In this document: in pieces, positions 5,375-46,346 of the stretch
Position numbering within the stretch: the first letter of the stretch is position 1
Layout: every line of letters begins with the position of its first letter
Source: a virus
Lineage: Duplodnaviria; Caudoviricetes
Length of the DNA stretch: 62,337 nucleotides
IMG/VR virus record: IMGVR_UViG_3300025128_000029
Span: 1-62,337 of that record
Strand: one strand, 5' to 3'
Made by a program: the position numbers and the translations under genes
The notes under the pieces: model-generated
Databases searched by the model: none
What the model was told of the DNA's origin: nothing
What the model saw: the letters and a program-made list of their open reading frames with translations, nothing else

Positions 5375-6226
5375 TTATGTTCTCCGAGACTGAGGTAACC
5401 CTCTTCTATACGCATCAGCATTTTCTCGTGCTTCTGCTAAATCTTTTAATCTTGCCACACTTTCTAAAAACCTACCATTATATAAATCTAATATATCTTT
5501 TTCACCTTTTAAGTAAGTATAAGCTTCAAATAACGATCCGTAAAGTAAAGCATTTTTTGCATTTTCACTTAACCATGTGACTGTAGTATCAGATCCTATT
5601 GCCGAAATAGTAGTCGTTGCACCACTACTTGAACCTGTAATCGTTTCTCCAACTGTAAAAGTTCCTGTGGGAACAACAACTATCGCTGAAGTAGTAGTCG
5701 GTTTGCTATTTAATGTAGTTGTTTGACCACTACTTGCACCTGTAATCGTTTCTCCATCTGTGAAGCTACTACTTAACGCAAGAGTTAAAGTTATTGTACT
5801 TTTAGTTAAACTCGTTGGTCTATAATAATAATGTAATTCTAACGCATACCCAGAATTAGGGGTAGGGGCTACTATAAAATGGTCTACATCAAAGCGTGCA
5901 TAATATTTAGGAAGACCTGTAGTAGAAGCACTCGGAGTATAGTCTCTTAAAAAGTTTACGTCTTTTTCAAGCAAAAAAGTTTCTGAACCAGAAGTCGTTA
6001 TCTGTAAAGAAAAAGGGGCAAGCAAATCACTAGGTACAGTTAAGTATTGGTCTGAAGAAGTAAAAGCCCCTGTTACATTTTTTCTAAAATATTCTAAATC
6101 GACTGATTTAAATAATCTTTCTTCAGCAGAAAATATGAAGTCAGGTAAATGAGTAATAAAACTACTTTCTTCTGTCTCAGTATAATCTTTTATTGCTGTT
6201 TTTAATTGTGTGTATGTATAACTCAT
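5375..6226 (-). CDS. head-tail adaptor / tail tubular protein A-like, with inserted domain
   Basis: YTYTQLKTAIKDY...AEERL, PTP..Y..ELHYYYRP, LLYGSLFEAY motifs; insert with two F..GETITG.SSG.T repeats. Confidence 0.65.
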   Translation of the reverse strand: MSYTYTQLKTAIKDYTETEESSFITHLPDFIFSAEERLFKSVDLEYFRKNVTGAFTSSDQYLTVPSDLLAPFSLQITTSGSETFLLEKDVNFLRDYTPSASTTGLPKYYARFDVDHFIVAPTPNSGYALELHYYYRPTSLTKSTITLTLALSSSFTDGETITGASSGQTTTLNSKPTTTSAIVVVPTGTFTVGETITGSSSGATTTISAIGSDTTVTWLSENAKNALLYGSLFEAYTYLKGEKDILDLYNGRFLESVARLKDLAEARENADAYRRGLPQSRRT

Positions 6227-6726
6227 TATCCCACCACCGTTACTGGACCTGCTGTTGCGATAGTTCCTCCACCTTTTGTGTTTGCTAAAGTTGCTGTTTC
6301 ACCATTAGCAGAAAAAGTATAAGAATCATCATTTACTTTGGTTATACTATATCCTGTCGCTTGTTGTAAAACAGATATTGTAAATCCAGCAAAAGGTTTT
6401 ACATTTCTAAAGCGAACCACATCATCAGTATCTCTACCATGATTTTTCTCAGTAACTGTAATAGTTGCTGTACCTATAGAACTTGAAGTAAAAGGGTTAG
6501 GTACTAACAATCTTTCTATAGCTACCTCCGTTCGATCTACTCTAGCATTATACAAAGCTTGAGGTTCAAAAGGAGGTTTTCTAGGGGTTAATTGGGGGTG
6601 TTTTTCTTCGTATTCAGATCTATGGACAATAAAACCATTCCACTCTTTTACTTTTTCTCTAAAAGGAAAGGCAAATCCACTACGGTCGGAAATAAATTTA
6701 GCTTTTTTACCAAGTGCAAATTTCAT
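6226..6726 (-). CDS. virion protein with C-terminal beta-barrel extension
   Basis: ISDRSGF.F..REKVKEWNG..V...EYEEKHPQL motif; ITVT..HG...D.V.F extension. Confidence 0.55.
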   Translation of the reverse strand: MKFALGKKAKFISDRSGFAFPFREKVKEWNGFIVHRSEYEEKHPQLTPRKPPFEPQALYNARVDRTEVAIERLLVPNPFTSSSIGTATITVTEKNHGRDTDDVVRFRNVKPFAGFTISVLQQATGYSITKVNDDSYTFSANGETATLANTKGGGTIATAGPVTVVG

Positions 6727-7391
6727 ATCAATCCATAATAAGTTGTACTAGGGGTTAAACTTAAACTTGCTCTATCCCTATCTTCAGCAGCAGCTCTTTC
6801 AAACTCTTCTTCATAAACTGCTTTTAATATTTTAATTCTATCTGGAGCTCTTTTCATAGCTAAATAATAAGCTAATCCTGCTGTTAAACAAGGATAAAAC
6901 CTAAAAGGCACATCAACAGTATTCACAGAAGCATCAGCATCTTGTATTCTAGTTAAAGCATCATAATATAAAACATCTGTACTGTTTTCTGGAGCTGACC
7001 ATATTTTTAAGTTAGGAGTTATCTGCCTATCTAAAAAGAACTGACTTGGTCTACCTGTAGTCGTTTTAGAAGGTAAATTAATATAATCATCCCTACTTAT
7101 TCTTGTCATAGAATAATCTATATTACTTCTTCTAACAACCATACTAAGGATATCTATCACATCAGCTCCTAATGTATAATCTACATCATTAGCTGTAAGA
7201 GCCTGTGTTCTTTGTGTAATAGTCCATTGATTTAAACCTCTGTTAGCCCAGTCTGCAAATAATAAATTCATAGAACGTCTGGCTGACCTTAAATCATACC
7301 CTGTGCGAATCTCAATTCCACATCTTTCAAATGCTTCTTCAATGTATTCAGCTACATCTATTTCAAAATCTACAGAACTTGAAGTTGCCAT
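6723..7391 (-). CDS. head-tail connector/adaptor protein
   Basis: IEEAFERCG...TGYDLRSARRSMNLLFADWANRGLNQW motif; GLAYYLAMK. Confidence 0.65.
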   Translation of the reverse strand: MATSSSVDFEIDVAEYIEEAFERCGIEIRTGYDLRSARRSMNLLFADWANRGLNQWTITQRTQALTANDVDYTLGADVIDILSMVVRRSNIDYSMTRISRDDYINLPSKTTTGRPSQFFLDRQITPNLKIWSAPENSTDVLYYDALTRIQDADASVNTVDVPFRFYPCLTAGLAYYLAMKRAPDRIKILKAVYEEEFERAAAEDRDRASLSLTPSTTYYGLI

Positions 7392-23927: not shown

Positions 23928-24254
23928 TTAATCATTTAGCCTCACAATATCATCTTCCCCAAAATATGTACCGAGTTGTGTTTCAATAATGGTTAGAGGT
24001 CCATCAGTCTCGTTTGCTATATAATGAATACTTGTTTGTGGGATATCTATACTTTCCCCTTTTACGAGAGAGTAGAATACACCATCAAGGTAAACAGTTG
24101 CTTCCCCTTTTGTAATGAGCCAATGTTCACTCCTGTGCATATGATATTGTTTAGAGATTTGTTTATATGGATTAATCGTCAGTTTTTTTACTTTACAATC
24201 GTGATCGAGTTGTAGAACTTCAAACTTGCCCCATATTCTATTGACTATGTCCAT
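23928..24254 (-). CDS. cupin, mannose-6-phosphate isomerase type II C-terminal-like
   Basis: R.WGKFEVL...KVKKLTINP...S.QYH.HRSEHW...IIETQLGTYFGEDDIVRL; start MDIVNR after AGGAG. Confidence 0.8.
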   Translation of the reverse strand: MDIVNRIWGKFEVLQLDHDCKVKKLTINPYKQISKQYHMHRSEHWLITKGEATVYLDGVFYSLVKGESIDIPQTSIHYIANETDGPLTIIETQLGTYFGEDDIVRLND

Positions 24255-24281
24255 CGTTTTCTCCTGAAAAAAAAATTTTGT

Positions 24282-24353
24282 GCTTACATAATCAATCAAA
24301 GTTTCCCAATAAACTTCTGCGTCGCCACGCAAATTAAGACTGATTATGTAAGC
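24282..24353 (-). ncRNA. candidate three-way-junction RNA
   Basis: 16-bp outer stem (one G-U on minus strand) enclosing UGCGU-GGCG-ACGCA and AAGUUU-AUUGGG-AAACUU. Confidence 0.4.
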
Positions 24354-24435
24354 TAGAGCAGGAAGGAGGTACAGAAAGGAGATGCCCCCCTTCAATCAAG
24401 AGACAATAACTAAACTCTTGATCATAACCACTACT

Positions 24436-24795
24436 CTATTCTGTCTTTATAAATACTCCATCTAAATTATAACCTTTTCTATCTTGGATCTCAACTAATG
24501 CCTTGCGTAAACAATCTTTTACACTAATCTCATTCCTAATCATGATATTTATCATTACAACCAACATATCACCAAGTGAATCGGTTAGGTCATTATAAAT
24601 ATCGGAACAAATATCATCAGATAATTCACCTAATTCCTGCATCAACTTTAAACATTGGTCTTTGTCGGAACTACCCTCTATTAATCCTCTATTTTCATGC
24701 CACTTTTTTACTTCGTCAATGAGTTCGTCGTACTCCATTGAATCGAACTTAGAGCTAGTCCATCTTCTGGCATTTGGCTTACTAAAATCACTCAT
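24436..24795 (-). CDS. MazG-like NTP pyrophosphohydrolase
   Basis: W...RGL...QCLKLMQELGEL...DSLGDMLVV...EIQDRKG...DGVFIK. Confidence 0.8.
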   Translation of the reverse strand: MSDFSKPNARRWTSSKFDSMEYDELIDEVKKWHENRGLIEGSSDKDQCLKLMQELGELSDDICSDIYNDLTDSLGDMLVVMINIMIRNEISVKDCLRKALVEIQDRKGYNLDGVFIKTE

Positions 24796-30941: not shown

Positions 30942-31490
30942 TTATTTTAATTCTAGTAGAATACTATGTACTACTGCAAAGTCGGGATTGCTAGAAAATT
31001 TTCTATACAAATATTCTCTGCCACGAGTATAAATAGGCTCAGCTAAAGTATTTCCCATTTGCGTTTGTCTTTTACAATGCAGAACTAACTCAAGCATATC
31101 AGCCATTTTTACTAACCCTCTATCTCTGTCTGTTAAATCTTGTAACATAACAGGAAGTTCTAGATCTTTTTCGTATTTAAACTCTGCTTTTGAAAATTCT
31201 TGTGCTAAATCTGTGTACTTCCACTTTGTAGTAGCTGGAAGATCGCCTAACTCAGCTTCTGCCACATCGTGGAATAATAACCAGAGTATAGCCTCTTTAC
31301 TTACATCTTCCCATAATGTAGTCAGTACAATCAATGCCCTCCATGTATGACTGGCAACATTCTGTCCTTCACCTACTTCGGGTCTTGTATGGAATCTAAC
31401 AACATGACCCCCTTGTAATCTTCTATGTACTTTTCTTAGTAATAAGTAATCCCCTTTTTGTGAAGATCCCCATTTTATATTATCTGACAT
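30942..31490 (-). CDS. HD-domain 5'-deoxynucleotidase/dNTPase (YfbR/DatZ-like)
   Basis: VVRFHT...NVASHTW...HDVAE..LGDLP..TK...KMADMLE. Confidence 0.8.
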   Translation of the reverse strand: MSDNIKWGSSQKGDYLLLRKVHRRLQGGHVVRFHTRPEVGEGQNVASHTWRALIVLTTLWEDVSKEAILWLLFHDVAEAELGDLPATTKWKYTDLAQEFSKAEFKYEKDLELPVMLQDLTDRDRGLVKMADMLELVLHCKRQTQMGNTLAEPIYTRGREYLYRKFSSNPDFAVVHSILLELK

Positions 31491-31499
31491 TACTTTCTC

Positions 31500-33416
31500 C
31501 TATGTCTGCATGGTTGAATGATTATCTCGTAAACCTCTTGTCCAAGGTTTATCGCTCAAAGTTTGTTTTGCCTCACCCCAATTTGGACCGAGCTCAGCGT
31601 CTACAATACTTGGTACTTCAAGAGACACACAGGTCTCCATTATTTCTGTTATCCTTTTTACTTGTGCTTCATTTTCTACACTTACATCAAGTTCATCATG
31701 TACTTGTATCATAGGCATAATACCCTCTTCAGCTAATGCCACCATCGCAGCTTTTGTCTGGTCAGCAGCACTCCCTTGAATTAGTTTGTTTAAAGCTTTA
31801 TAAGTGAATGCTCTTTTAATAGCTGGACCATGTTCAGCATACGCATCTTTTTGAGTCATAGGTTTCCAGCTACCATATTGAGTTGGTTCCCATTTATCAA
31901 ACCTACATCTCCTGCCTAGTAAAGTACGGATAACTCCTTTTTGTGTGGCTCTGTTAATAGCATACTCAGATAACTCTTTTACAAAAGGCACTTTTTTGTG
32001 ATAAGTAGCAAATAAGTCCTGTGCTTCTTCAAATTCTAAACCTAAACTTGCTGCGAGCTTCTTACTTCCCATACCATAAAACAGACCTAGATTAATATCT
32101 TTAGCTTGTTTGCGTGGTACTCCTACAATATCAGCAGCCATCTGATGAAAATCTGTTCGAGCATCTATGTTATATTGGTCGGCAAACTCTTCTGCCCCTC
32201 TAAAGCCCATGAGTTTTGCATAATGCACCACCAATCGAGGTTCTTGGCTTGAGTAGTCGAACGCACCCCATAACGCATCCTGTTCTGGTATAAACAAGCT
32301 ACGAATAAGTGGACCAATTTCACCATGCCTAGCAGGGATTTGTTGTAGATTAGGGTTACTATAACTGAATCTTCCTGTTACTGTACCACCTTGATCATTG
32401 CGTAAAGGGTGGAGTTCAGCATGGATCCTACCATTTTTTTGGTGTTTCAGTATTGTATCTACAAAAGTTGTCCGTGCTTTATTAAATTCTCTTGCCTGTA
32501 CAATCATTTTAGGAACTTCATGTGGGTGTGTCGTTAAAAACCCTTTAGTAAAGCTAGGAGCTCCTGTCTTTTCTGTTTTACTGTAGCCTAACCCAACAGC
32601 ATCAAAAGCTTTAGCAACACTCTCAGAAGCCCATATTTCAACTTCTATACCTGTGATCCTTTTTATTTCTTTCATTAGCCTTTGTTCTTTTGCTAATAAA
32701 TCTACTTTTATTAGTTCAGCTTTATGTAAATCAACCCGAACACCTCTTGCTCGCATAGGGATAATTGTTTTAAGAACCTTGAGTTCAAGGTCAACTATAT
32801 CTGAGATGTCTTCTTTAATTATTAATCCTTTAAAATACTGCCATAATCTTAATGTTAATCCAGCATCTTGCTCAGCATACTTACCCACATAATGAGCAGG
32901 AAGTTTATACATCTCACTTTTAGCATTTACTCCAAATGCCTCAGCAGCTTCTCTTAAGTCAGCTTCTGACTTGCGTTCTTGTAAGTAATCCCTACCTATC
33001 GCATTAAGGGCATAACTGAATCTATTTTCATCCAACAGGGGAGCAACAACCATTGTATCACATATTCTACCTTTAATATGCACTCCCTCTGCAAGTAGCC
33101 AACCTACATCGTAAGGAGCATTATGAAAAATATAATCTCTATCTATAGAAACAACTTCTTTTAACCAATGTAATGTCCTCATAGGGTCAAAGTTTGAACC
33201 TATCTCATGCCTAATGGGAAAGTACCATTGACTACCCTCAACAGCTACAGCTACTCCAATTATATGTCCATCTTTTCTAGCCCACCCTGACCCCATTGTT
33301 GTTAGGTTAGGGTCTTTTGTTTCTAAATCAATAGCTACTTCTTTATACTTATCTAAGTCTGGGTAACCATCTGGCATAACCCAATCAATCGGGGGTTGAA
33401 ATAAAGGTATCTGCAT
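31500..33416 (-). CDS. polA: DNA polymerase family A with 3'-5' exonuclease
   Basis: DLET exo I, HNAPYD, TGRFS...PNLQQIP, DYSSQEPR, AKDINLGLFYGMG, QVHDEL. Confidence 0.95.
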   Translation of the reverse strand: MQIPLFQPPIDWVMPDGYPDLDKYKEVAIDLETKDPNLTTMGSGWARKDGHIIGVAVAVEGSQWYFPIRHEIGSNFDPMRTLHWLKEVVSIDRDYIFHNAPYDVGWLLAEGVHIKGRICDTMVVAPLLDENRFSYALNAIGRDYLQERKSEADLREAAEAFGVNAKSEMYKLPAHYVGKYAEQDAGLTLRLWQYFKGLIIKEDISDIVDLELKVLKTIIPMRARGVRVDLHKAELIKVDLLAKEQRLMKEIKRITGIEVEIWASESVAKAFDAVGLGYSKTEKTGAPSFTKGFLTTHPHEVPKMIVQAREFNKARTTFVDTILKHQKNGRIHAELHPLRNDQGGTVTGRFSYSNPNLQQIPARHGEIGPLIRSLFIPEQDALWGAFDYSSQEPRLVVHYAKLMGFRGAEEFADQYNIDARTDFHQMAADIVGVPRKQAKDINLGLFYGMGSKKLAASLGLEFEEAQDLFATYHKKVPFVKELSEYAINRATQKGVIRTLLGRRCRFDKWEPTQYGSWKPMTQKDAYAEHGPAIKRAFTYKALNKLIQGSAADQTKAAMVALAEEGIMPMIQVHDELDVSVENEAQVKRITEIMETCVSLEVPSIVDAELGPNWGEAKQTLSDKPWTRGLRDNHSTMQT

Positions 33417-33555
33417 TACTTTTTATCCTCATAGGTTTAGGGGGGCGACACTTTTTACACATCGCCCATTTATTTTTAAGAGTACGAAAGGTAAGGATTC
33501 TTTCATCTCCACATGTGTCACAAACTGCTTTTATCTTCTGGTCGAGTGATTCCAT
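33385..33555 (-). CDS. 56-aa Zn-ribbon microprotein
   Basis: MESLDQKIKAVCDTCG...CKKCRPP, read manually; GAGG RBS; overlaps both neighbours. Confidence 0.5.
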   Translation of the reverse strand: MESLDQKIKAVCDTCGDERILTFRTLKNKWAMCKKCRPPKPMRIKSNADTFISTPD

Positions 33556-33844
33556 TTAATCTTACCTCTGCCTCCACTAATAACAAGTACCTCCTTAAAT
33601 CTTGTATATCATCTAATATACCCTCTGGGCGAGTATCTTCCTTTATTGCTTGGAAAACATCGTAATTAACTTTTGTTACTTGGTTCTCAAGCCTATCCCA
33701 TTTACGAGCAAGCATCATAAAAGCACCTACACCACCTCGCTTTTTCCAACTATCACCGTAAGATTGCTCAGCTTCATGTAACCCTTTTACATCTTCGTTT
33801 GCTAATGTATTTACTTTTTGTATTATCTTACTTCTAGTACTCAC
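33518..33844 (-). CDS. nucleotide-modification-associated domain 1 (Nmad1/DUF1599-like, MazG-fold)
   Basis: SYGDSWKKRGGVGAFMMLARKWDRL...DDIQDLRRYLLL; GTGA overlap suggests GTG start at 33844. Confidence 0.65.
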   Translation of the reverse strand: MSTRSKIIQKVNTLANEDVKGLHEAEQSYGDSWKKRGGVGAFMMLARKWDRLENQVTKVNYDVFQAIKEDTRPEGILDDIQDLRRYLLLVEAEVRLNGITRPEDKSSL

Positions 33845-34824
33845 TTCAGTCTCCTCTCTAACCATTCTATACAAGCCCTCCTCCATGCTCTATCATTTAT
33901 TCTTGATGCAAACTTTAATGCTGTAAGTAGTTCTTTCTTTTTCCAAGCTTTCCATGACTTCATCATGGGGGTAGCTGTGTCTGTGAGATAAGTATTAGTT
34001 AATCCTTCTATAGTATAATCATCAAACCATTTGTACAACTCAGAATCAAAATTATGAGCATTATCTATTAATGGTGGCGAATTATAACTTAACCCATCTT
34101 CAGCTAATAAAAGATAAGGTTCATAATCGGGCTGTAGGGAATATAAGTTTAATTTTTCTAATACATCTGTATAAACATGAAGATTATTACTTATTTGATA
34201 ATAAGTACCAATTTTATTATCTGTCATGAAAGCCATATATTCTAACAAAAAAGACATATGTACTGCATTTGCTCCATAAGCACCCCAGATCATATCATTA
34301 CTTCTGTTTACCACAGTCATATTAAGATAACCTTTTCTAGCCCAAAAAAAGACTTGTGTATTACAAGGATAATCTACTCCTGTGTTTGTTGAAGTTAGAT
34401 CAGCATAAGGATCCCACATACCTACTACAACTCTACGATCATTAGGGTAACTTAACAATCTGTTTTTAGCTATGTTTAATTGGTCTACACCAAAGTGCTT
34501 CCTCCAGCGATGTCCGTATGCACCATGAAAGGTAATACCGTCATCGCTATAATTATTCATTCTTCCGTTAAATTGGCTAATCCACTCTACATCATTACGA
34601 CCTGCTAACATCCATAAGCTTTCCATAAAATGGAAATATGGGTTAGCATCACGTTGAGGGTAAAACAATACTCTTTCCCAACTGTGTGTGTATTCTGTGC
34701 AAACAGGCATTGGAAACTCTAAAGCTTTACCATTTCTAGTATCTACCTCTACCCCTGTGTTTTGGATAACCTGTATGCCGTGATATAAAGCCTCACTAAC
34801 ACCTCTACTATATATATTGTACAA
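33841..34824 (-). CDS. dUMP hydroxymethylase (thymidylate synthase superfamily)
   Basis: TRNG, ANPYFHFMESLWML.GRND, AYG.RWR, catalytic DYPCN, RSNDMIWGAYGANAVH with Asn (dUMP-type) specificity residue, NLHVY. Confidence 0.8.
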   Translation of the reverse strand: MYNIYSRGVSEALYHGIQVIQNTGVEVDTRNGKALEFPMPVCTEYTHSWERVLFYPQRDANPYFHFMESLWMLAGRNDVEWISQFNGRMNNYSDDGITFHGAYGHRWRKHFGVDQLNIAKNRLLSYPNDRRVVVGMWDPYADLTSTNTGVDYPCNTQVFFWARKGYLNMTVVNRSNDMIWGAYGANAVHMSFLLEYMAFMTDNKIGTYYQISNNLHVYTDVLEKLNLYSLQPDYEPYLLLAEDGLSYNSPPLIDNAHNFDSELYKWFDDYTIEGLTNTYLTDTATPMMKSWKAWKKKELLTALKFASRINDRAWRRACIEWLERRLK

Positions 34825-34850
34825 TATGCCCTCCTATGGCGAATGAGTTA

Positions 34851-34876
34851 TTATAGGGTACAAATATACCCTATAA
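34851..34876. promoter_or_regulatory. intergenic hairpin within modification operon
   Basis: TTATAGGGTA-N6-TACCCTATAA. Confidence 0.45.
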
Positions 34877-34909
34877 GTTAATTGTGACAGTCAGAGCCTA
34901 ATCGAGTGG

Positions 34910-35905
34910 CTACTCAATGTTTAAGAACTGCTTGTATTGGCTACCTATTATTATAGGGTCGTGTAATTTAAGAGCATTATACCCATTTTCTCTAATTGAT
35001 GGTATAGAATCAGAGTAAGCCCCATTGAGTATAGTAGCCAACTCTTCTGCAGAGCCAACAGCAAAACAGTTATAATCAGGCTTCATATCATCAGGTTCGT
35101 CAAGTATCCACTTATTATGTATAATAGGAATACATCCTGCATTCCAAGATTCTAAAGCTGTGTATTGTGTTCCACCACCATCACCCACTATTTGCGTCAT
35201 ATCTACATTAAACACATAATCTTGCATTAACTTAAACGCAAAATCATTTTCTCTAGGGTAATGGGCTTTAGATTGTACCCACTCTGGATACTTTGGCACA
35301 ATTTTAAACCGAGTAAAAATTCTGTTTTCAAAACCTCTTATATTTATTTTCTTATCTTCAGTTAATAACCTATTAGCATCTAATAATATTTCAGTGTGCT
35401 TATCAAAATCAATACGCGAAGTACTTACAGCACCCTTTCTATCAAGGTTAGTATGTTTAGGAAAAGGTGTATAAGGGTGACGGATAAAGGTTGCCCCCTC
35501 AAAAGTTCTTGCACCTATTTGTCTAATAACAACACACCTTTTAGGGTCTAAATCAACAGGTAAGTTTTTTAATTCAGTTGGGTCATGAACAACGATACTT
35601 GCACCTATATCGTACAATAGCTGTGTTTCTTCTTTAAACTGCTTTGCCCCAGCGACAACTAACTTAATCGTTTCTTTGTACTCGTTGTTTACAATAGTTT
35701 TACGATTCCTAGCCTCAGCCATAGAAATATTTCTATAATGTTTACCATAACCAAACTCACGGCTTTTGCGTTCACTCTTTGGTCTTATCTTAAACAGGGT
35801 ACACTTAACTCCTACTGCTTCAAGGGCTTCCATCAAATGATTAGTATAAGTAACCCAACCTCCATACGGATTAGGGCTTAAATAAAATAAATCTACATGT
35901 GTCAT
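34910..35905 (-). CDS. GT-B fold glycosyltransferase (GT4-like), putative DNA glycosyltransferase
   Basis: PYGGWVTYTNHL N-terminal loop, VVHDP, TSRIDFDKH, GGGTQYTALESWNAGCIPI; ATGA overlap gives start 35905. Confidence 0.7.
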   Translation of the reverse strand: MTHVDLFYLSPNPYGGWVTYTNHLMEALEAVGVKCTLFKIRPKSERKSREFGYGKHYRNISMAEARNRKTIVNNEYKETIKLVVAGAKQFKEETQLLYDIGASIVVHDPTELKNLPVDLDPKRCVVIRQIGARTFEGATFIRHPYTPFPKHTNLDRKGAVSTSRIDFDKHTEILLDANRLLTEDKKINIRGFENRIFTRFKIVPKYPEWVQSKAHYPRENDFAFKLMQDYVFNVDMTQIVGDGGGTQYTALESWNAGCIPIIHNKWILDEPDDMKPDYNCFAVGSAEELATILNGAYSDSIPSIRENGYNALKLHDPIIIGSQYKQFLNIE

Positions 35906-36816
35906 GCTACAGGTCCTTCCAATGTTTTCCATTTGTTGTAATTTAAAAGTGAACTAAGATGGGCATCGTACTTACTACGAGGTGTACCTTGCCCTAATCT
36001 AACTCTTTCATACTTATCCCACTCACACAGGCTATGCTCTATAGTTCGCATATCTACGTTTTCAATGGAGACTACATTTCTAGTACCCTGTGCAATATCT
36101 AATACTTTTTTCATTTCTATATTAGACTGAACAGCAGTTAGTCCTTTAGTAAGGGGTCTATCGTATAACCTGTTTAAACCTCGTTTTGCTCCTGGACCTG
36201 CGTTCGCCCAAGTAAAACGGTCTGTCGCCTCGTCCAGTATGCGTGTGTAGTTGAGATCGGTAACCACTTCGTAAGACATAAAGCCCCCTCCACCCCACCC
36301 ACGATAGGCAGACATCGCATGGTGTAAGGCTTGTAACGACTGAGTGTTGGTCGCAATCTCGGCAAGTTTTTCTTTGCTTTCCCAAATAGGGGTGAGGAAA
36401 TGGTCAACTACAACTTCTCCTTTAGGTAACTTTAACCCTTGATTAGTTATAATATATGCTCCTGTAAAAGTTCGCAACTTCTTAGCCAATCGTTCGGCGA
36501 TTAATTGCTTAGTATATTCAGGATCCCACTTTGAAGCCCAACCATGAGCCTCAGCAAACTCAGTTGTACCAACCATTCTAAACAAACAACAGTTAAATAT
36601 TATTTCGCCATCGGGTTTATTATGGTTTGGGTTTGTCCAGTTCTGACGCATCCATATAGTAACCTTATCGTTTTCACGGAAAGGGTTTGTAAATTTATAC
36701 TCTTGGAGTATTTTATCTTTTGTAAAGGGAGGTGGATCACCAATTACTTTTTTTCGGTAAATAGCATGTCGCTCATTTATCCAATAAAAGAACCTTTCTA
36801 AGTTCTCTATGTTCAC
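35902..36816 (-). CDS. aGPT-Pplase1-like DNA base hypermodification protein (HhH glycosylase-derived)
   Basis: FFYWINERHAIY.KK..G.PPP.T.D.ILQ.YKFTN.FRENDKVT, FTGAYII, FMSYEVVTDL, ANAGPGAKRGL, EH.LCEWDKY.R. Confidence 0.8.
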   Translation of the reverse strand: MNIENLERFFYWINERHAIYRKKVIGDPPPFTKDKILQEYKFTNPFRENDKVTIWMRQNWTNPNHNKPDGEIIFNCCLFRMVGTTEFAEAHGWASKWDPEYTKQLIAERLAKKLRTFTGAYIITNQGLKLPKGEVVVDHFLTPIWESKEKLAEIATNTQSLQALHHAMSAYRGWGGGGFMSYEVVTDLNYTRILDEATDRFTWANAGPGAKRGLNRLYDRPLTKGLTAVQSNIEMKKVLDIAQGTRNVVSIENVDMRTIEHSLCEWDKYERVRLGQGTPRSKYDAHLSSLLNYNKWKTLEGPVA

Positions 36817-36818
36817 AA

Positions 36819-37430
36819 TTACTCTCCCATACCTAGCTGGATTACTTTGTTTTGAATAGCAATAGTAATATCTCTGGCACTTCCTGGAGAAGGCTCTAGC
36901 TTACGCAAAGATTGTAATGCTTCACCTAAAGTATCAGAGTTTAAAATAACCATCATATTTCTATAACGATTTGTACCCTCACGCATAGGGGGTGAATCCA
37001 TAAGCTTTTTTATTTTTACATGAGGTTCTAACTTATGAATAGGCATAGATGTCAATGTTCCATCAGCAACTATGTTTAAGACTTCTTTGGTAGCTTCTGG
37101 TGTTAATTCAGTCATTTTCTTTCCTTCTGTTTTTTCTATAGGTTTATATTTTTTGGAGTGTGTTTCCACATATTCAAAAAAGTTAGTATAATGTTGGTCT
37201 TCGTTATACTTGTGAAAATGATATTGGTTACAGGCTACAAGAATCCACTTTAAATCTTCAGCAGAATAATCCCTTTGTAACTGTTGTATATCAGAGAAGA
37301 CAATACTATACTCATTAACTTCTTTACACTCTTTACTTGCACTTAATGTAGGAAAATGAAAAAAGCTATAAGCTGTATTCTTCCCACTATTATTATCGTT
37401 TTCTAAAACGATGTACACTTGTCTTGCCAT
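36819..37430 (-). CDS. hypothetical protein heading the modification operon
   Basis: start MARQVY after AGAAAGG; C-terminal PMREGTNR...TLGEAL...DI..AI....IQL domain. Confidence 0.55.
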   Translation of the reverse strand: MARQVYIVLENDNNSGKNTAYSFFHFPTLSASKECKEVNEYSIVFSDIQQLQRDYSAEDLKWILVACNQYHFHKYNEDQHYTNFFEYVETHSKKYKPIEKTEGKKMTELTPEATKEVLNIVADGTLTSMPIHKLEPHVKIKKLMDSPPMREGTNRYRNMMVILNSDTLGEALQSLRKLEPSPGSARDITIAIQNKVIQLGMGE

Positions 37431-37513
37431 GTATCTTTCCTTTCTATGAAAAAATGCCAATGTTCATATTCTGCAATATGCACATTGGCATGACAAGGTT
37501 TATTTTGTCGGTA

Positions 37514-38536
37514 TTAAGATGCGTACTCTAGCACTTTAGTTAATGCTTTTCTCTTAGTATTAGCACCTGTCCCAAACCATGCAGAGTGTAAAGAATTACC
37601 TATTACATTGGACTTTTTCTCATGGTCAACAACATAAGTCACTGCATTCAATGCTCCCCACCAAGTGCCTTTAGCAGACTTTAGCTGGGATCCTGGGGAA
37701 GTTTCTATAGCATCAAGAACATTTTCAGCAGTACGAGAAAACTCATCTCGTAGGGGTGGTAAACTTTCAAAACTGTCGGACTTACCTCGCTCTATAAGCA
37801 ATTTAGGTTGAAGTAACTCAGCAATAAAATTATCAAGGTCAGCAGATTTGTATTGCTTACTAGATAAAAACTCTGATTGCTCTTGGAAAGCTTTCATTTG
37901 TTGCCCTGAAAGACCTAATGCCTCCTCAGCAGCTTTTATAATTTCTTCGTCGAACATTTGTAAATGTAGAACTCTGAAACGTTCACCGTCAGCACCAAGT
38001 GCCATTGTCAAGGTGTTGTTACAAACAACTCGTATCGGTGTAAACATAATAGTCATAGCTTTACCAACTTGGTGACTATTATTTATTAATAGGTAACCTT
38101 TAACTTCGTCGTCACCTGAAAGCTTAAACTTGTCAGTTAGTTTTGCTAACCCCCAAATGTCCTTGCCCTCTTTTAAGCTTCCTGCAGTTTCCATTTGCAT
38201 TTGCCCTGCGTCAGTAAACTTTTTGAAAAAGTCCATAACTTCTGCATTTTGAAATGGTACATAACCATCACCACAAGAACTTAAAACCTTGTTGTCACTG
38301 TCACGCACTAAATGGTAACTGTCAGGGCAACGAATAAAGTTCGCTTCCCCTGAAGGGTCAAGTATATTCCAAACATCTGGTTTGTCTGGAACGTAGGAAG
38401 GTCGTTTGCTAACTGTCCAGTTTAACTTCGCAGCTTCTAACATTTGTTCAGGTGTCATGTCTGATGAAACCTGTTCGCCTAGACCATGCCATGGAACGTT
38501 TCCTGCATAAGCCATTGTTTCTATTTCGTGTGCCAT
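37514..38536 (-). CDS. DUF932 family protein
   Basis: MAHEIE...PWHGLG...L.WTV...Y.PFQN...ETAGSL..G...TPIRVVCNNTL...GTWWGALNAVT. Confidence 0.85.
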   Translation of the reverse strand: MAHEIETMAYAGNVPWHGLGEQVSSDMTPEQMLEAAKLNWTVSKRPSYVPDKPDVWNILDPSGEANFIRCPDSYHLVRDSDNKVLSSCGDGYVPFQNAEVMDFFKKFTDAGQMQMETAGSLKEGKDIWGLAKLTDKFKLSGDDEVKGYLLINNSHQVGKAMTIMFTPIRVVCNNTLTMALGADGERFRVLHLQMFDEEIIKAAEEALGLSGQQMKAFQEQSEFLSSKQYKSADLDNFIAELLQPKLLIERGKSDSFESLPPLRDEFSRTAENVLDAIETSPGSQLKSAKGTWWGALNAVTYVVDHEKKSNVIGNSLHSAWFGTGANTKRKALTKVLEYAS

Positions 38537-41086: not shown

Positions 41087-41328
41087 TAATCAACAAACTC
41101 CTCTAATGCTGTTTTTAATGAATGAAGATGAACAAATACAGGGGTGTCTTCGCCAACCCATGCACCAATAACATTATAAGACATCCATTCTTCTGCTTCG
41201 TCTTCACTCATCTTGTCTCGTTTCATTAAAATTTTTATACATTTAGAGTAATCATAAACAGCGACAACGATATTAAATCTGCAACCTGTACCAATAAAAG
41301 CTTTCTCAAATCCATCAGCTAACATCAT
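41086..41328 (-). CDS. conserved phage hypothetical protein
   Basis: ADGFEKAFIG...VYDY.KC...EAEEW...NV.GAWVG..TP.F. Confidence 0.6.
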   Translation of the reverse strand: MMLADGFEKAFIGTGCRFNIVVAVYDYSKCIKILMKRDKMSEDEAEEWMSYNVIGAWVGEDTPVFVHLHSLKTALEEFVD

Positions 41329-42863
41329 TATATCAAACCTGAACCTTTGGGTAGGTCGGGAATTTTTATTTCTACATCGTCAGTATCAAAATATTCTTGT
41401 GGTAAAGACCATACATGAATACCCTTGTTTTTAATTCTCCAAAACATTTTATCTGCCCCTAAATCTCTTAACCTTAATGTTATTTTATTAGAAGTATAAT
41501 GGTTGAAATCGTTTACAGACAAATGTTTTTTAACATCTTTTATTTGAAAATAAACTCTGCCCTCAACCCATACAGCAACTCCTTGAATAATTTCCTCTTT
41601 CTCTTCACCTTTGGCTCTTTCACAACAAAAAGCATGAAGTAAATCTTCAAACTCTCCTTTAAGTGTAGCATCAGGTGGAACTTCTACAATAGTTACTTTA
41701 TCTAACAAAGCTTGTATTCTTGTTTGCCAAGCCCTCTGGCTAATAGTAATCGGGAATTTATTTATTTGTGCAACACACTCCCTTTGAAACTGAGTCTGTG
41801 CTGTTAAACCACTTGTAGATAATTCAACCCTTTGATCATCTACGTTTAATATCCATATAGCAGGATCACCATCTATTTTAGTTAAGCTACTTAAATCGTT
41901 ACTAACTGTATTCGGACCTACACCATACTTCCGTGTCTTACAAACTTCTTTATCACAAAAAGGTTTTATTGGTTGGTCTTCACATTTATAAAAATATTCT
42001 TTTTTGTTAAGCTGTTTGATAACAGTGCCTACTTCACTATGACTCAAGGGTGGGGAAAAGTAATCTATATTATATTTTTGTATTAAAGTTTCCCAATTAT
42101 TTTCATCAAATCTTCTAGCATAAACACCCAAGTTAAACAGAGCATTATTGCGTGAACCCTCAGCAAATCCCTTACTACATAAATGTTGTAAGCATGGTGG
42201 ACCTTCCTCAAGAACACCCTCTTTTACTCCAAAGCTAAATTGTAACTTCATAAATTCTTTAGGGGTAATCCTGTTTCTCTTTGCATACTCTATAAAAGCT
42301 GTTGTTAACATTGTTGTGCCTTTTTCATCAAAAGCATAACGAGTAGTTTTATCCCCTGCATGATAAGGCATATTTAAAAAGTTACCTGTATCTCCTCGCT
42401 CTACTAATATAGTAGATTGCTTAGGAAATATCTCACAACCAGAATGACCTAGAGCTGCTGATAATTCTGTCATCTTGCGTTGCATATCAATAGCTTCAAT
42501 AGACTCTGTTAAAAATACCCATACATGAGCTCCACCACTTTTAGTCCTGCCTACAACAGCAGGGATATTATTGTTATGTAAAATATCGCATAATTCTTTA
42601 TGGTCAATATCATACTTATCAATATCTATTGCACCCCATTGACATTGGTTATCGCTTCGTATTGGGATAATACCTATACCTGTTCCTCCTGTTAGATGTT
42701 CTTTCCACATATCAACAGTAGTAGGCTCTTTTATAACCTTTGCAGTACCTTGTTTTTTACCACCTCCAGGACGGCTTGTGTTTACTATAAATGTTCCATG
42801 AGCAATATCACTGCCCTTAAACAAGTCAAAAAATTCTTGTGCTAAATCCATTAGTTTCTCCAA
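41328..42863 (-). CDS. primase (AEP/primase-polymerase-like with PriCT-like domain)
   Basis: HL.G..GIG..PI, IDID, RTKSGGAH, EIFPKQ, GNFLNMPY, PPCL, RNNALFN. Confidence 0.8.
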   Translation of the reverse strand: MEKLMDLAQEFFDLFKGSDIAHGTFIVNTSRPGGGKKQGTAKVIKEPTTVDMWKEHLTGGTGIGIIPIRSDNQCQWGAIDIDKYDIDHKELCDILHNNNIPAVVGRTKSGGAHVWVFLTESIEAIDMQRKMTELSAALGHSGCEIFPKQSTILVERGDTGNFLNMPYHAGDKTTRYAFDEKGTTMLTTAFIEYAKRNRITPKEFMKLQFSFGVKEGVLEEGPPCLQHLCSKGFAEGSRNNALFNLGVYARRFDENNWETLIQKYNIDYFSPPLSHSEVGTVIKQLNKKEYFYKCEDQPIKPFCDKEVCKTRKYGVGPNTVSNDLSSLTKIDGDPAIWILNVDDQRVELSTSGLTAQTQFQRECVAQINKFPITISQRAWQTRIQALLDKVTIVEVPPDATLKGEFEDLLHAFCCERAKGEEKEEIIQGVAVWVEGRVYFQIKDVKKHLSVNDFNHYTSNKITLRLRDLGADKMFWRIKNKGIHVWSLPQEYFDTDDVEIKIPDLPKGSGLI

Positions 42864-44906: not shown

Positions 44907-46346
44907 ATGCGTTATAAATTTAAGTTTGAACCATATAAACATCAGTTAGATGCTTTAACTAAGGCATGGAACAAAGAGTTTTTTGCTTTCTTTATGGATA
45001 TGGGTACAGGTAAATCAAAAGTATTAATAGATAATATTGGCATACTTTATGACAAAGGCGAAATAGACTCTGCTTTGATCATAGCACCCAAAGGTGTTTA
45101 CCATAACTGGACAAGAAAAGAACTACCTACACATTTACCTGAACATATCCATGCTGATATTGTTACATGGTCTCCTGAGAAAACACAAAAGAAAGCAAAA
45201 GAGCTTGCTGTGTTAAACCAAGTTACAGACAACCTTGTTATATTCGTTATGAATGTAGAGGCTTTATCTACTAAAAGGGGAGTAGCTGTAGCTGATAAGT
45301 TTTTGTTAACTCACAGGGCTATGCTTGCTGTAGATGAAAGTACTACCATAAAATCTAGAACAGCTTCAAGAACAAAAAATCTTATGAAACTAGGTAAACT
45401 AGCCAGTTATCGCAGAATATTAACTGGCTCCCCTGTAACTCATTCTCCCTTAGATCTTTATACCCAATGCACTTTTTTAAAAGAAGAAAGTTTAGGGCAG
45501 TCTTCATTTTGGACTTTCCAAAACAGATATGCTAAAATGGTTAGGAGAACACTTGGTTCACATAGCTTTAATCAAATAACAGGTTACCAAAACCTTGAAG
45601 AACTAAATGGTATTATAGAACCCTATAGCTTTAGAGTTCGCAAAGAAGACTGTTTAGACTTGCCAGATAAAGTGTATATAAAAAGGTCAGTGGAACTAAC
45701 TGATGAGCAAAAACTTTTATATGTTCAGTTAAAAAGTTCTGCTATGGCTTTTGTAAAAGAACAAGGGCAAATCACAGCACAAACAGTACTCACACAAATA
45801 ATTAGATTACAACAAGTATGTTCAGGCTTTGGCAAACTTGATGATGGGCGAATGGTTGAAGTTTCATCAAACAAACTTAATGAACTAATGTCTGTATTAG
45901 AAGAAACAACAGGTAAAGTTATTATATGGGCGAACTTTACACATGATCTACAAATAATTTATCAAGCAATAACAAAGGCTTACGGAGCAGATTCAGCTTC
46001 CCTTTTCTATGGGGAAACCCCTACTGATGACAGACAAGATATAGTAGAGCAGTTTCAAAACCCTAATAGCCCACTGAAATATTTTATAGGACAACCACGC
46101 ACAGGTGGATATGGGTTAACTCTTACTGAGGCTAAAACAGTTATATATTATAGTAATGGATATGATTTAGAAGTTAGGTTACAAAGTGAAGATAGAGCTC
46201 ACCGTATTGGTCAAACTAATAAAGTCACTTATGTAGATATAGTTACTGAAAAAACTATAGATGAAAAAATATTAAAAGCATTAAGGGCTAAAATAGATAT
46301 TGCAAGTCAAGTATTAGATGAAGGTGTGATGAACTGGATTATTTAG
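44907..46346 (+). CDS. SNF2-like SF2 helicase
   Basis: MDMGTGKS, DEST, LTGSP, GGYGLTLT, QSEDRAHRIGQ. Confidence 0.9.
   Translation: MRYKFKFEPYKHQLDALTKAWNKEFFAFFMDMGTGKSKVLIDNIGILYDKGEIDSALIIAPKGVYHNWTRKELPTHLPEHIHADIVTWSPEKTQKKAKELAVLNQVTDNLVIFVMNVEALSTKRGVAVADKFLLTHRAMLAVDESTTIKSRTASRTKNLMKLGKLASYRRILTGSPVTHSPLDLYTQCTFLKEESLGQSSFWTFQNRYAKMVRRTLGSHSFNQITGYQNLEELNGIIEPYSFRVRKEDCLDLPDKVYIKRSVELTDEQKLLYVQLKSSAMAFVKEQGQITAQTVLTQIIRLQQVCSGFGKLDDGRMVEVSSNKLNELMSVLEETTGKVIIWANFTHDLQIIYQAITKAYGADSASLFYGETPTDDRQDIVEQFQNPNSPLKYFIGQPRTGGYGLTLTEAKTVIYYSNGYDLEVRLQSEDRAHRIGQTNKVTYVDIVTEKTIDEKILKALRAKIDIASQVLDEGVMNWII

Follow-up and report, generated by a model that had tools for sequence, protein, structure and literature searches.

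Predicted kinase-independent, sugar-adding version of the thymidine-hypermodification pathway in an HTVC023P-type marine podophage

The genome of an HTVC023P-type marine podophage appears, on balance, to encode a form of the phage thymidine-hypermodification pathway that adds a sugar and does without the kinase, as predicted from its genes and from the neighborhoods of their relatives. To our knowledge, every thymine-hypermodifying phage studied so far uses the kinase step. The window, which is the whole 62.3 kb stretch of DNA analyzed, is an entire viral record, and its minus strand carries a row of genes in the order PP1 (the PF18723 gene), GT-B gene, TS homolog, p122, p56, and PolA. All genes named in a preliminary description of the DNA were found on this strand where it had placed them, including the DNA polymerase behind the modification genes. 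The features are as follows:

35902..36816, minus strand: PP1, PF18723 'HMUDK_hel', the former aGPT-Pplase clade 1, 304 aa (Pfam E 2.3e-46; PHROG 2396)
34910..35905, minus strand: putative divergent GT-B (GT4-like) glycosyltransferase, 331 aa from the likely ATG start at 35905 (family-level matches)
34851..34876, no strand: palindromic hairpin with a 10-bp stem in the GT/TS spacer
33841..34824, minus strand: TS homolog, putative hydroxymethylase of dUMP (5-hmdUMP synthase) with a TTG start codon preceded by AGGAGG (PF00303 2.6e-20; PHROG 5131 2.6e-104)
33518..33886, minus strand: p122, small conserved protein (no Pfam match even at E 10)
33385..33555, minus strand: p56, 56-aa Cys-rich (zinc-ribbon-like) protein (weak Lar-like match below the cut-off)
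31500..33416, minus strand: family A DNA polymerase, PolA (51–55% identity to PolA of 023Pt_psg01, DSL-LC04, HTVC023P, and HTVC027P)
30942..31490, minus strand: HD-domain YfbR-like 5'-deoxynucleotidase (PF12917 6.6e-9; PF13023)
24436..24795, minus strand: weak MazG-like pyrophosphohydrolase candidate (PF03819 E 4.8e-4, below the curated cut-off)
23928..24395, minus strand: stand-alone mannose-6-phosphate-isomerase-type cupin (PF01050 4.4e-31)

The TGA stop codon of PP1 and the ATG of the GT gene overlap as ATGA, and the gene pairs TS/p122, p122/p56, and p56/PolA also overlap. The coupling proposed previously is present at these junctions, with the GT and TS genes separated by 85 nt. The hairpin lies in this spacer; however, terminator-like sites in the region are no more common than in shuffled sequences, and therefore no function is claimed for it. 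The TerL of the phage is 57–61% identical to those of 023Pt_psg01, HTVC023P, and HTVC027P.

The predicted conversion of dUMP to 5-hydroxymethyl-dUMP by the TS homolog is well supported. The protein contains the motif NRSND...GAYGAN, with an asparagine at the position of ThyA N177, and the RSND...GAN strings on which the previous assignment of a dUMP-type hydroxymethylase was based are therefore present. In E. coli ThyA numbering, the signature of the enzyme is D143, C146, R166, N168, D169, and N177. The signature is that of the hydroxymethylases in phages whose modifications are known to start from 5-hmdU: the identical six active-site residues occur in AN14 (M6-like), Sonora, PaMx11, and Goe2 (SPO1-like); the enzyme of BSP101 (ViI-like) departs at position 168 alone, where it has Gln, and T4 td has L143. 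The signature is common to 95 of 96 distinct homologs from all fetched loci, the exception being a fragment. The closest cultured relatives are from M6-like phages and PaMx11, with 41–44% identity, followed by those of SPO1-like and ViI-like phages. The significance of positions 143, 169, and 177 is taken from the available excerpt of PMC13326640, according to which a 5-hydroxy-dCMP synthase of the RB69 gp48 type needs Asn169 and Asp177. This identity was rejected for the window protein, which has Asp169 and Asn177.

The longest ORF of the GT gene (34910–35932, start at 35932) encodes 340 aa. The likely start is the ATG at 35905, because the homologs start at residue Met10 of this ORF and the ATG overlaps the stop codon of PP1. 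A GT-B class is supported for the family of the putative enzyme: among 30 aligned members, five match Glyco_trans_1_2 (best 9.5e-7), two Glyco_transf_4, and one Glycos_transf_1, and the look-alikes of the window protein identified by a protein language model in the Atlas are glycosyltransferase clusters. The earlier GT-B assignment is therefore supported at the level of the family, whereas the window protein itself has no Pfam or PHROG match and no sequence match in the PDB. A sister family of ~434-aa GT4-like proteins aligns with that of the window GT with an hhalign probability of 96% and an E-value of 3e-9. Homologs of the GT number 612 in metagenomes and 0 in GenBank phages. Membership in the T4 AGT family was considered and rejected: PF11440 has no match at E ≤ 10 in the genome, the hhalign probability to T4 AGT is 0.7%, and the sole link is an Atlas feature look-alike.

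PP1 is the only PF18723 gene in the genome and matches the model over its full length (positions 4–276 of 281), which confirms the aGPT-Pplase1-like gene of the preliminary description. It is 32–37% identical to the genes adjoining the 5-hmdU DNA kinase in M6-like phages and Sonora. The family has 20 invariant residues, including L263-C264-E265, in columns common to kinase-linked members. The LCE motif aligns with E243-T244-x-x-C247 of PaMx11 gp46, in which Cys247 is the proposed nucleophile (PMC11472151, excerpt). PP1 retains the Cys, aromatic, and acidic residues of base-flipping amino-acid:DNA transferases (ADDTs); the profile alignment between PP1 and ADDT is statistically weak, with an hhalign probability of 1.4%.

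Nothing in the genome matches the 5-hmdU DNA kinase model PF18748 at E ≤ 10. Searches of the genome by phmmer with two known kinases reached a best E-value of 0.29, and a search of 483 six-frame ORFs with our own four-sequence kinase HMM (--max) one of 0.28. Within the window, strict Walker A motifs are confined to the UvrD-like helicase and an 834-aa protein, the second of these probably being a chance match. The ADDT model (PF18724, aGPT-Pplase clade 2) has 0 matches at E ≤ 10, with a best E-value of 2.5 for our own HMM, and Nmad5 was not found. The reported absence of a kinase is thus borne out for the record, and a kinase hidden in a missing part of the genome finds no support, as the window is the whole record with a CheckV completeness estimate of 100%; terminal repeats were not found. 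The same absence extends to 43 GT-bearing viral records, which we selected from 80 GT loci: PF18748 was found in none of them, a set that comprises 17 records of ≥90% completeness, and none contains an ADDT over the cut-off. The PF18748 model detected the kinase in all four known phages used as a positive control. However, it missed a kinase-like ORF in locus L147 that was identified by our own HMM (5e-29), and therefore whole-record screens based on Pfam alone lack full sensitivity.

PP1 and TS constitute the constant core of the modules in related loci, and the slot between them is occupied in 67 of 80 PP1-centered loci. The occupant is TAGT (PF20691) in 42, the ~434-aa GT-B in 12, the window GT family in six, an unknown family in six, and none of these four in one. 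The PP1 tree requires at least 25 changes of partner type. PP1 and GT genes abut in 24 of 36 pairs and occur in both orders. TAGT, the Pfam name of which reflects its association with TET, is absent from the window. A ParB – Tet_JBP – GT-B tandem is present in 17 of 80 GT-centered loci, and its GT-B belongs to the window GT family; nine TET-linked GTs that were examined keep most of the invariant residues of the family. Because TAGT and the window GT-B family both occur with TET/JBP where PP1 is absent, they can probably take the hydroxymethyl base directly. In the TET/JBP phages, the GT-B family does without PP1. Related modules also contain a nucleotide-sugar-type enzyme, FkbM methyltransferases, and second GTs. 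This comparative genomics supports a predicted sugar on hmU in DNA. The product proposed in the preliminary description, a glycosylated hmU, thus gains support of a comparative kind from the TS signature, the absence of the kinase and ADDT, the swapping of unrelated DNA glycosyltransferase families in the slot, and the GT-B behind ParB-TET/JBP.

In the predicted pathway, host kinases would convert the hydroxymethylated nucleotide to the triphosphate, and the phage PolA would write hmU in place of T. Thymidine nucleotides may be kept low by the HD 5'-deoxynucleotidase, and perhaps by the MazG-like protein, the identity of which is a lead only. The HD enzyme is a candidate for excluding dTMP from the pool; the same family adjoins TS in AN14 and PaMx11 and is present in most related loci. 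The GT-B enzyme would then use a nucleotide-sugar to glycosylate the hmU of the DNA, as suggested by gene context across many phages; the acceptor would most simply be the 5-hydroxymethyl oxygen, yielding a base-J-like O-glycoside. It is possible that the cupin is linked to the supply of the sugar donor. Its family occurs in four of 13 near-complete genomes with the window GT family and in 0 of 23 others over the cut-off, and in locus L035 it is fused to a cytidylyltransferase-like domain and sited between PP1 and GT. In our preferred reading, PP1 would flip and hold hmU for an adjoining hydroxyl-derivatizing enzyme. This neighbor would be a GT-A or GT-B enzyme in this phage and its relatives, the kinase in the M6-like phages, and perhaps a methyltransferase in others. 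PP1 may also perform Cys-C6 chemistry of its own.

Two small genes accompany the module. The name 'Nmad1-like' given earlier to p122 could not be upheld, as the PF07659 (DUF1599) model finds nothing in the genome at E ≤ 10; the only lead comes from an Atlas cluster in which 11% of the members have DUF1599. Of 110 loci, 74 have a p122 relative downstream of TS at a distance of no more than 1.6 kb; none was found in the M6-like, Sonora, and PaMx11 loci. The p56 gene is kept between p122 and PolA in related loci.

A more general reading is offered tentatively and has perhaps one chance in three: HTVC023P-type marine podophages would replace T by glycosylated hmU by means of a modular core, consisting of the TS hydroxymethylase and the PF18723 base-flipping Cys enzyme, which takes interchangeable O-derivatizing enzymes. 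The plug-in enzymes would be the P-loop kinase, the GT-A TAGT, two GT-B families, and possibly a methyltransferase. If this is true, abundant marine podophages contain a bacterial-virus counterpart of base J, PF18723 is a general hmU-presenting or hmU-activating subunit, and the kinase route is one branch of a much wider thymidine-hypermodification family.

Alternatively, PP1 may act first and the GT second, in a scheme resembling that of SP-15. An exocyclic methylene would be made by the Cys of PP1 from hmU, either lacking a phosphate or after an unknown activation, a small linker or nucleophile would be attached, and the linker would then be glycosylated, so that the GT avoids the hydroxymethyl oxygen. 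The retained catalytic-Cys motif fits this order of events, as does one 99%-complete genome with PP1 and TS and without a detected GT or kinase. RP13-like phages have Pplase1 and no detectable kinase, and in polymerase clustering they fall with SP-15, YerA41, and Carin-5, phages whose thymidines are hypermodified with a linker and a sugar (excerpts of PMC13697223 and PMC12686479). Radical-SAM/SPASM enzymes recur in related modules; however, the window contains no radical-SAM or other accessory enzyme. The loss of hydroxide from unactivated hmU would be chemically hard, and the occurrence of TAGT and the window GT-B family with TET/JBP and no PP1 also speaks against such an order, which we consider unlikely.

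It is rather unlikely that, as the preliminary description proposed as an alternative, the GT is an activator replacing the kinase, with the sugar serving as a leaving group that is displaced by the Cys-C6 chemistry of PP1 to give another group or thymine. According to older work, the thymine of PhiW-14 and SP10 DNA is itself made from hmU at the polymer level, and we know of no enzyme assigned to that step. In M6-like phages, Sonora, and PaMx11, the partner to which PP1 is coupled is the kinase, and 12 longer proteins combine the two in a fusion; in the window, the GT is the coupled partner in a similar manner, and kinase and GT never co-occur within one locus. Against an activating role, a glycoside would be a far poorer leaving group than phosphate, PP1 is also found with TS alone, and the window lacks enzymes that would form the donor of a second group or tailor that group. 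Furthermore, M6 gp55, a PF18723 paralog, is dispensable for product formation in lysates (PMC8989533, excerpt).

PP1 might instead be a replication-coupled DNA-sanitizing or repair-type enzyme, acting for example on U or T in a genome that contains hmU, and the GT would glycosylate hmU on its own. Among the fusions found, besides those with the kinase, one PP1 is fused to PolA, one to MazG, and none to a GT. In the PolA fusion (P0121), PP1 (residues 12–270) is N-terminal to a family A polymerase (exo 451–530, pol 585–927), a layout reminiscent of the UDG-PolA fusions known from T-modified phages (PMC13697223, excerpt). The MazG fusion points in the same direction, as does the companion of PP1, which is always the TS-route hydroxymethylase and never the TET/JBP route, no PP1 locus having a Tet_JBP-like ORF. 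However, PP1 and GT are tightly coupled in translation whichever of the two genes comes first, which argues against repair, and the conserved Cys-Glu motif resembles transferases, not HhH glycosylases, in which the catalytic residues are Asp/Lys. A repair function is improbable.

Most GT4-like enzymes have lipid, sugar, or protein acceptors, and 21 of 80 GT-centered loci, some on giant-virus MAG contigs, have neither PP1/TS nor TET/JBP; nevertheless, it is very improbable that the GT glycosylates something other than DNA, for instance a host surface glycan or virion protein, and leaves only hmU or a PP1 product in the DNA, given the fixed place of the GT between PP1 and the hydroxymethylase, where TAGT replaces it, the ATGA coupling, and the ParB-TET/JBP-GT tandems.

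Parts of the predicted glycosylation pathway have appeared in print. The window shares its phage lineage with the HTVC023P-type pelagiphages of Wittmers et al. 2022 (PMC9599517), in which TS and aG/PT-PPlase1 lie near PolA, in some cases accompanied by a 5'-deoxynucleotidase and a putative glucosyltransferase. There, the genes are labeled 'DNA hypermodification partner AMGs' and the system is equated with that of M6; the available text of that paper makes no mention of a lack of kinase and transferase, of the signature for uracil, or of a slot in which GTs are interchanged. RP13-like phages with a Pplase1 gene and no detectable kinase have also been described (PMC13697223, excerpt). The claim of novelty is narrowed accordingly: the gene pairing is already published for pelagiphages, and, as far as the excerpts of these papers extend, the absence of the kinase, the logic of the modules, and the putative product are new in these phages.

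The SP-15, YerA41, Carin-5, and RP13 group resembles the window in having T-modified genomes with sugars, and its RP13-like members share the state of Pplase1 without a kinase (PMC13697223, excerpt). The modification in this group includes a C5 linker and a phosphate (PMC12686479, excerpt). These phages are large myoviruses with UDG-fused PolA and blocks of sugar-metabolism genes, whereas the window has one GT and one cupin.

The route of M6, PaMx11, ViI, PhiW-14, and SP10 consists of a dUMP hydroxymethylase, the 5-HMUDK kinase, and an amino-acid:DNA transferase. The window resembles these phages in the clade of its TS hydroxymethylase, the PF18723 gene, the HD phosphohydrolase, and the place of the module beside PolA. 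By contrast, it lacks PF18748, PF18724, Nmad5, PLP or flavin tailoring enzymes, and radical-SAM enzymes, and a glycosyltransferase stands in the place of the kinase beside PF18723. The T-even phages, with their dCMP hydroxymethylase and alpha/beta-glucosyltransferase, similarly use a TS-family hydroxymethylase before replication and add the sugar to the polymer afterwards. However, the predicted base in the window is uracil (Asn, not Asp, at position 177), PF18723 is an extra partner, and the GT is no detectable member of the T4 AGT family.

The predicted product, glycosylated 5-hydroxymethyluracil, is shared with the base J systems of kinetoplastids and of phages with TET/JBP and TAGT or GT-B; relatives of the window GT-B lie behind ParB-dependent-type TET/JBP genes, and TAGT substitutes for it in sister phages. 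Unlike in those systems, there is no GT-A enzyme (TAGT) in the window, PP1 loci carry no gene for a Tet_JBP-like dioxygenase, and hmU would be made as a nucleotide by the TS homolog; therefore, it could replace all T in the genome, not selected sites.

The window of 62,337 bases is an entire IMG/VR virus record with a CheckV completeness estimate of 100%, and terminal repeats were not found in it. Its PolA shares 51-55% and its TerL 57-61% identity with those of 023Pt_psg01, DSL-LC04, and the Pelagibacter phages HTVC023P and HTVC027P; therefore, the virus is an HTVC023P-type marine podophage. Nearly all of its genes are carried by the minus strand. The genes of the module are transcribed in the order PP1, GT, TS, 122-residue protein, 56-residue protein, PolA, and 5'-deoxynucleotidase.

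Genes of the module in transcription order, and a distant cupin gene of the window
35902-36816, minus strand: PP1, PF18723 protein of 304 residues (Pfam E 2.3e-46)
34910-35932, minus strand: GT, candidate GT-B glycosyltransferase of 331-340 residues, without a family match of its own
33841-34824, minus strand: TS, thymidylate synthase homolog (PF00303, 2.6e-20; PHROG 5131, 2.6e-104)
3' of TS in transcription order, minus strand: 122-residue protein
Between the 122-residue protein and PolA, minus strand: 56-residue Cys-rich protein
Last in order, after PolA, minus strand: YfbR-like HD-domain 5'-deoxynucleotidase
23928-24395, 10 kb from the module: stand-alone mannose-6-phosphate-isomerase-type cupin

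The stop codon of PP1 overlaps the ATG of the GT gene in an ATGA, and because homologs begin at the Met of this overlap, GT is most likely 331 residues long. The GT/TS spacer, the only sizeable one in the operon, contains a perfect 10-bp inverted repeat (TTATAGGGTA...TACCCTATAA, 34851-34876); the frequency of promoter- and terminator-like sites is not above that in shuffled sequences. Directly upstream of PP1 lies the gene of a 213-residue protein without a family match (36819-37460), which keeps its place in the closest related viral loci L005-L021. The replication block (41328-42863, 37514-38536, and 44907-46346) encodes an AEP-type primase-polymerase (AEP-TOTE and PriCT_1), a DUF932 protein, and an SNF2-family helicase, the last of which is among the few plus-strand genes. 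The set of coupled modification genes flagged in the preliminary description is real; however, two of the gene names used there are not proven.

The TS homolog has Asp143, Cys146, Arg166, Asn168, Asp169, and Asn177 in HMMER alignments (E. coli ThyA numbering). The identical six residues are present in the homologs from AN14 (M6-like), Sonora, PaMx11, and Goe2 (SPO1-like), and that of BSP101 (ViI-like) departs from the signature at position 168 only. It has been reported for ThyA that Asn177 selects dUMP and Asp177 dCMP, that position 143 is Leu with methylation and acidic with hydroxymethylation, and that an Asp169-to-Asn change marks 5-hydroxy-dCMP synthases (PMC13326640). A plain thymidylate synthase was rejected because the window has Asp143 where T4 td has Leu, and dCMP hydroxymethylase and 5-hydroxy-dCMP synthase were rejected because of Asn177 and Asp169. 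Among 1,630 GenBank phage records, the closest homologs are from M6-like phages and PaMx11, with 41-44% identity over the full length, and the next-best are from SPO1-like and ViI-like phages. We take the window TS to be a dUMP hydroxymethylase, as predicted from its sequence.

The claim that the window encodes no 5-hmdU DNA kinase is borne out by HMM searches over all 483 of its six-frame ORFs. The models of the kinase (PF18748), the amino-acid:DNA transferase ADDT (PF18724), and Nmad5 (PF18757) have zero matches in the window at E <= 10, and phmmer searches with known members retrieve nothing from it. Our own HMMs, derived from four kinases and three ADDTs, detect nothing among the ORFs, with best E-values of 0.28 and 2.5, respectively. 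The window also lacks matches to dCMP deaminase, the GT-A glycosyltransferase TAGT (PF20691), radical-SAM, cytidylyltransferase, and DUF1599. The search was extended to 43 whole records, out of 50 put forward from 80 GT-bearing viral loci. The kinase, which the screen found in four of four known phages (over the cut-off in three), was detected in none of the 43, among them 17 with a completeness of 90% or more. The Pfam model overlooked a kinase-like ORF in the related locus L147, which our HMM scores at 5e-29. Because the record is estimated to be complete and the 17 near-complete relatives lack a kinase, its location in a missing part of the genome was rejected. In Salmonella phage BSP101, the "terminase small subunit" preceding TS (locus L086 1-604; NC_049382.1 145168-145830) matches the kinase model with an E-value of 1.5e-114, and its annotation looks wrong.

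A set of 80 loci centered on PP1 was kept out of 538 stretches encoding a PP1 relative. PP1 is followed by TS in 75 of the 80, with intervening genes in 67. This slot is occupied by TAGT in 42 of the 67 loci (1.8e-20 to 9.5e-16 on three examples), by a GT-B of about 434 residues in 12 (hhalign to the window GT family: probability 96%, E 3e-9), by the window GT family in six, by an unknown family in six, and by none of the four in one. A radical-SAM/SPASM enzyme is additionally present in 16 slots. The kinase is found in only three of the 80 loci, and none of the 80 combines it with a GT. On a PP1 tree with 107 rows, a minimum of 25 switches of partner label is required, versus a mean of 55 with shuffled labels. 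The window belongs to a well-supported clade of 34 rows, which includes 11 with TAGT and 11 from each of two GT-B families. PP1 and the window GT family are directly adjacent in 24 of 36 pairs, and both gene orders are seen.

The window GT has 612 metagenome relatives at E <= 0.001, many of them on contigs of about 60 kb, and no tblastn match in GenBank phages at E 0.01. Of 30 aligned family members, five match Glyco_trans_1_2 (best 9.5e-7), two Glyco_transf_4, and one Glycos_transf_1. The look-alikes identified by a language model are glycosyltransferase clusters, one composed of PF11440 AGT proteins; the AGT model itself does not match the window GT, and the comparison of the family with one T4 AGT sequence gives no match (hhalign probability 0.7%). 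Thus, the GT family is probably a divergent GT-B/GT4-like group. Searches of PDB sequences with the GT profile and with PP1 found nothing. Positions S19, R188, P213, Y215, E217, Q220, and M283 are conserved only in PP1-linked members, which is a hint at a shared surface or acceptor, nothing more.

In the proposed pathway, synthesis of hmdUMP would lead to DNA containing 5-hydroxymethyluracil (hmU), the GT-B enzyme would move a sugar onto hmU in the polymer, and PP1 would work on the same flipped base. We lean slightly towards the production of a glycosylated hmU-derived base without a kinase, and if such a base is made, a direct, base-J-like O-glycoside is the simplest product. This interpretation, already put forward in the preliminary description, is plausible and is now backed by the comparison across phages. 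In a rival order of events, PP1 would act first and GT would then glycosylate a linker. Alternatively, the sugar could be a leaving group for PP1, PP1 could be a replication-coupled sanitizing enzyme, or GT could act on a non-DNA acceptor. Kinase-linked and GT-linked PP1 proteins have 20 invariant residues in common, including L263-C264-E265; this stretch aligns with E243-T244-x-x-C247 of PaMx11 gp46, at an hhalign probability of only 1.4%. In gp46, Cys247 is the proposed attacker of C6 of the flipped base, and the clamp is Trp146 (PMC11472151). The PF18723 paralog in M6, gp55, is reported to be dispensable for product formation in lysates (PMC8989533).

Among 80 GT-centered loci, kept out of 224 viral-contig stretches encoding a GT relative, PP1 is present in 41, of which 37 also have TS; one locus, at a contig end, has TS without PP1. 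In 17 loci, GT follows ParB and Tet_JBP in tandem, without PP1 or TS (Pfam matched Tet_JBP in four of five examples, not in L059), and the nine TET-linked GTs examined retain most residues that are invariant in the family. Thymine dioxygenase activity, with 5hmU as the product, is ascribed to ParB-linked TET/JBP enzymes (PMC13229309), and the tandem is a putative glycosylating version of these ParB-dependent clusters. The remaining 21 loci lack PP1, TS, and TET/JBP, and several are giant-virus MAG contigs. The tandems, which often adjoin terminase, include L036, L041, L043, L047, L051, L061, L063, L066, L068, L070, L072, and L081-L083, with GT at about 6000-7000 in each. Relatives of the GT-B family with 32-37% identity are on contigs labeled as giant-virus MAGs (L046, L062, L064, L065, L073, L076, and L077), with PP1, TS, and TET/JBP not nearby. 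In L033 (7076-11214), an 857-residue ORF between GT and TS has weak Hint/intein and radical-SAM matches, all below curated cut-offs, and is followed by two PLP-dependent (PALP) enzymes.

That PP1 is a simple adaptor for GT is made less likely by the TET/JBP-linked GTs without PP1, by a 99%-complete genome with PP1 directly before TS in which GT-B, TAGT, and kinase were not detected, by the longer PP1-domain proteins, which are 12 kinase, one PolA, and one MazG fusions with none to GT, and by the failure to find a fused GT form (none of 596-2000 residues, which is weak evidence). The 12 thymidylate-kinase-like fusions have about 564 residues each, and some are on bacterial-size contigs. In P0121 (1024 residues, one 11.4 kb JGI contig), PF18723 forms the N-terminal part of a fusion with a family A DNA polymerase, and in P0131 (670 residues) it precedes MazG and MazG_C. 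Just upstream of PP1, L165 (4938-5786) and its near copy L166 encode a SAM-dependent methyltransferase (Methyltransf_23, 1e-11), which could represent an O-methylating branch; in both, PP1 adjoins TS, and neither GT nor kinase was found. The 99%-complete genome has a SAM methyltransferase gene in this position.

Related modules encode FkbM methyltransferases, second GTs, and a fusion of a cytidylyltransferase-like domain with a mannose-6-P-isomerase cupin, which is placed between PP1 and GT in L035 (5151-6020) and within or beside the module in L011 (10423-11247). Such fusions hint at nucleotide-sugar donors made by the phage. The stand-alone cupin is the only enzyme of this kind in the window; its family occurs in four of 13 near-complete genomes with the window GT and over the cut-off in none of 23 others.

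Wittmers et al. 2022 reported TS and aG/PT-PPlase1 close to PolA in HTVC023P-type clades (PMC9599517), Pyle et al. mined about 25,000 GT contigs, in which GT-B hits were often near thymidylate synthase homologs (bioRxiv 2023.12.21.572611), and RP13-like phages are described as having a Pplase1 gene and no detectable kinase (PMC13697223). A full-text literature search retrieved no paper testing the window GT or PF18723, identifying the product, or describing the interchangeable GT slot; supplements may list relevant genes. If true, a widespread kinase-free branch ending in a sugar would be new chemistry for phage DNA and a first clue to the role of PF18723, a family uncharacterized in the literature found. 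The carriers are relatives of pelagiphages common in the ocean, and sugar-modified DNA would affect the evasion of restriction and CRISPR in major marine hosts as well as the recovery of carrier genomes by sequencing. The enzymes of the module could serve as tools for labeling 5-hmU. To our knowledge, every reconstituted pathway of thymidine hypermodification begins by phosphorylating hmU in the DNA. M6-like AN14, Sonora, and PaMx11 carry their genes in the sequence ADDT, tailoring enzymes, P-loop kinase, PP1, (Nmad5), TS, HD, and PolA; in the window, PP1 is followed by GT and TS.
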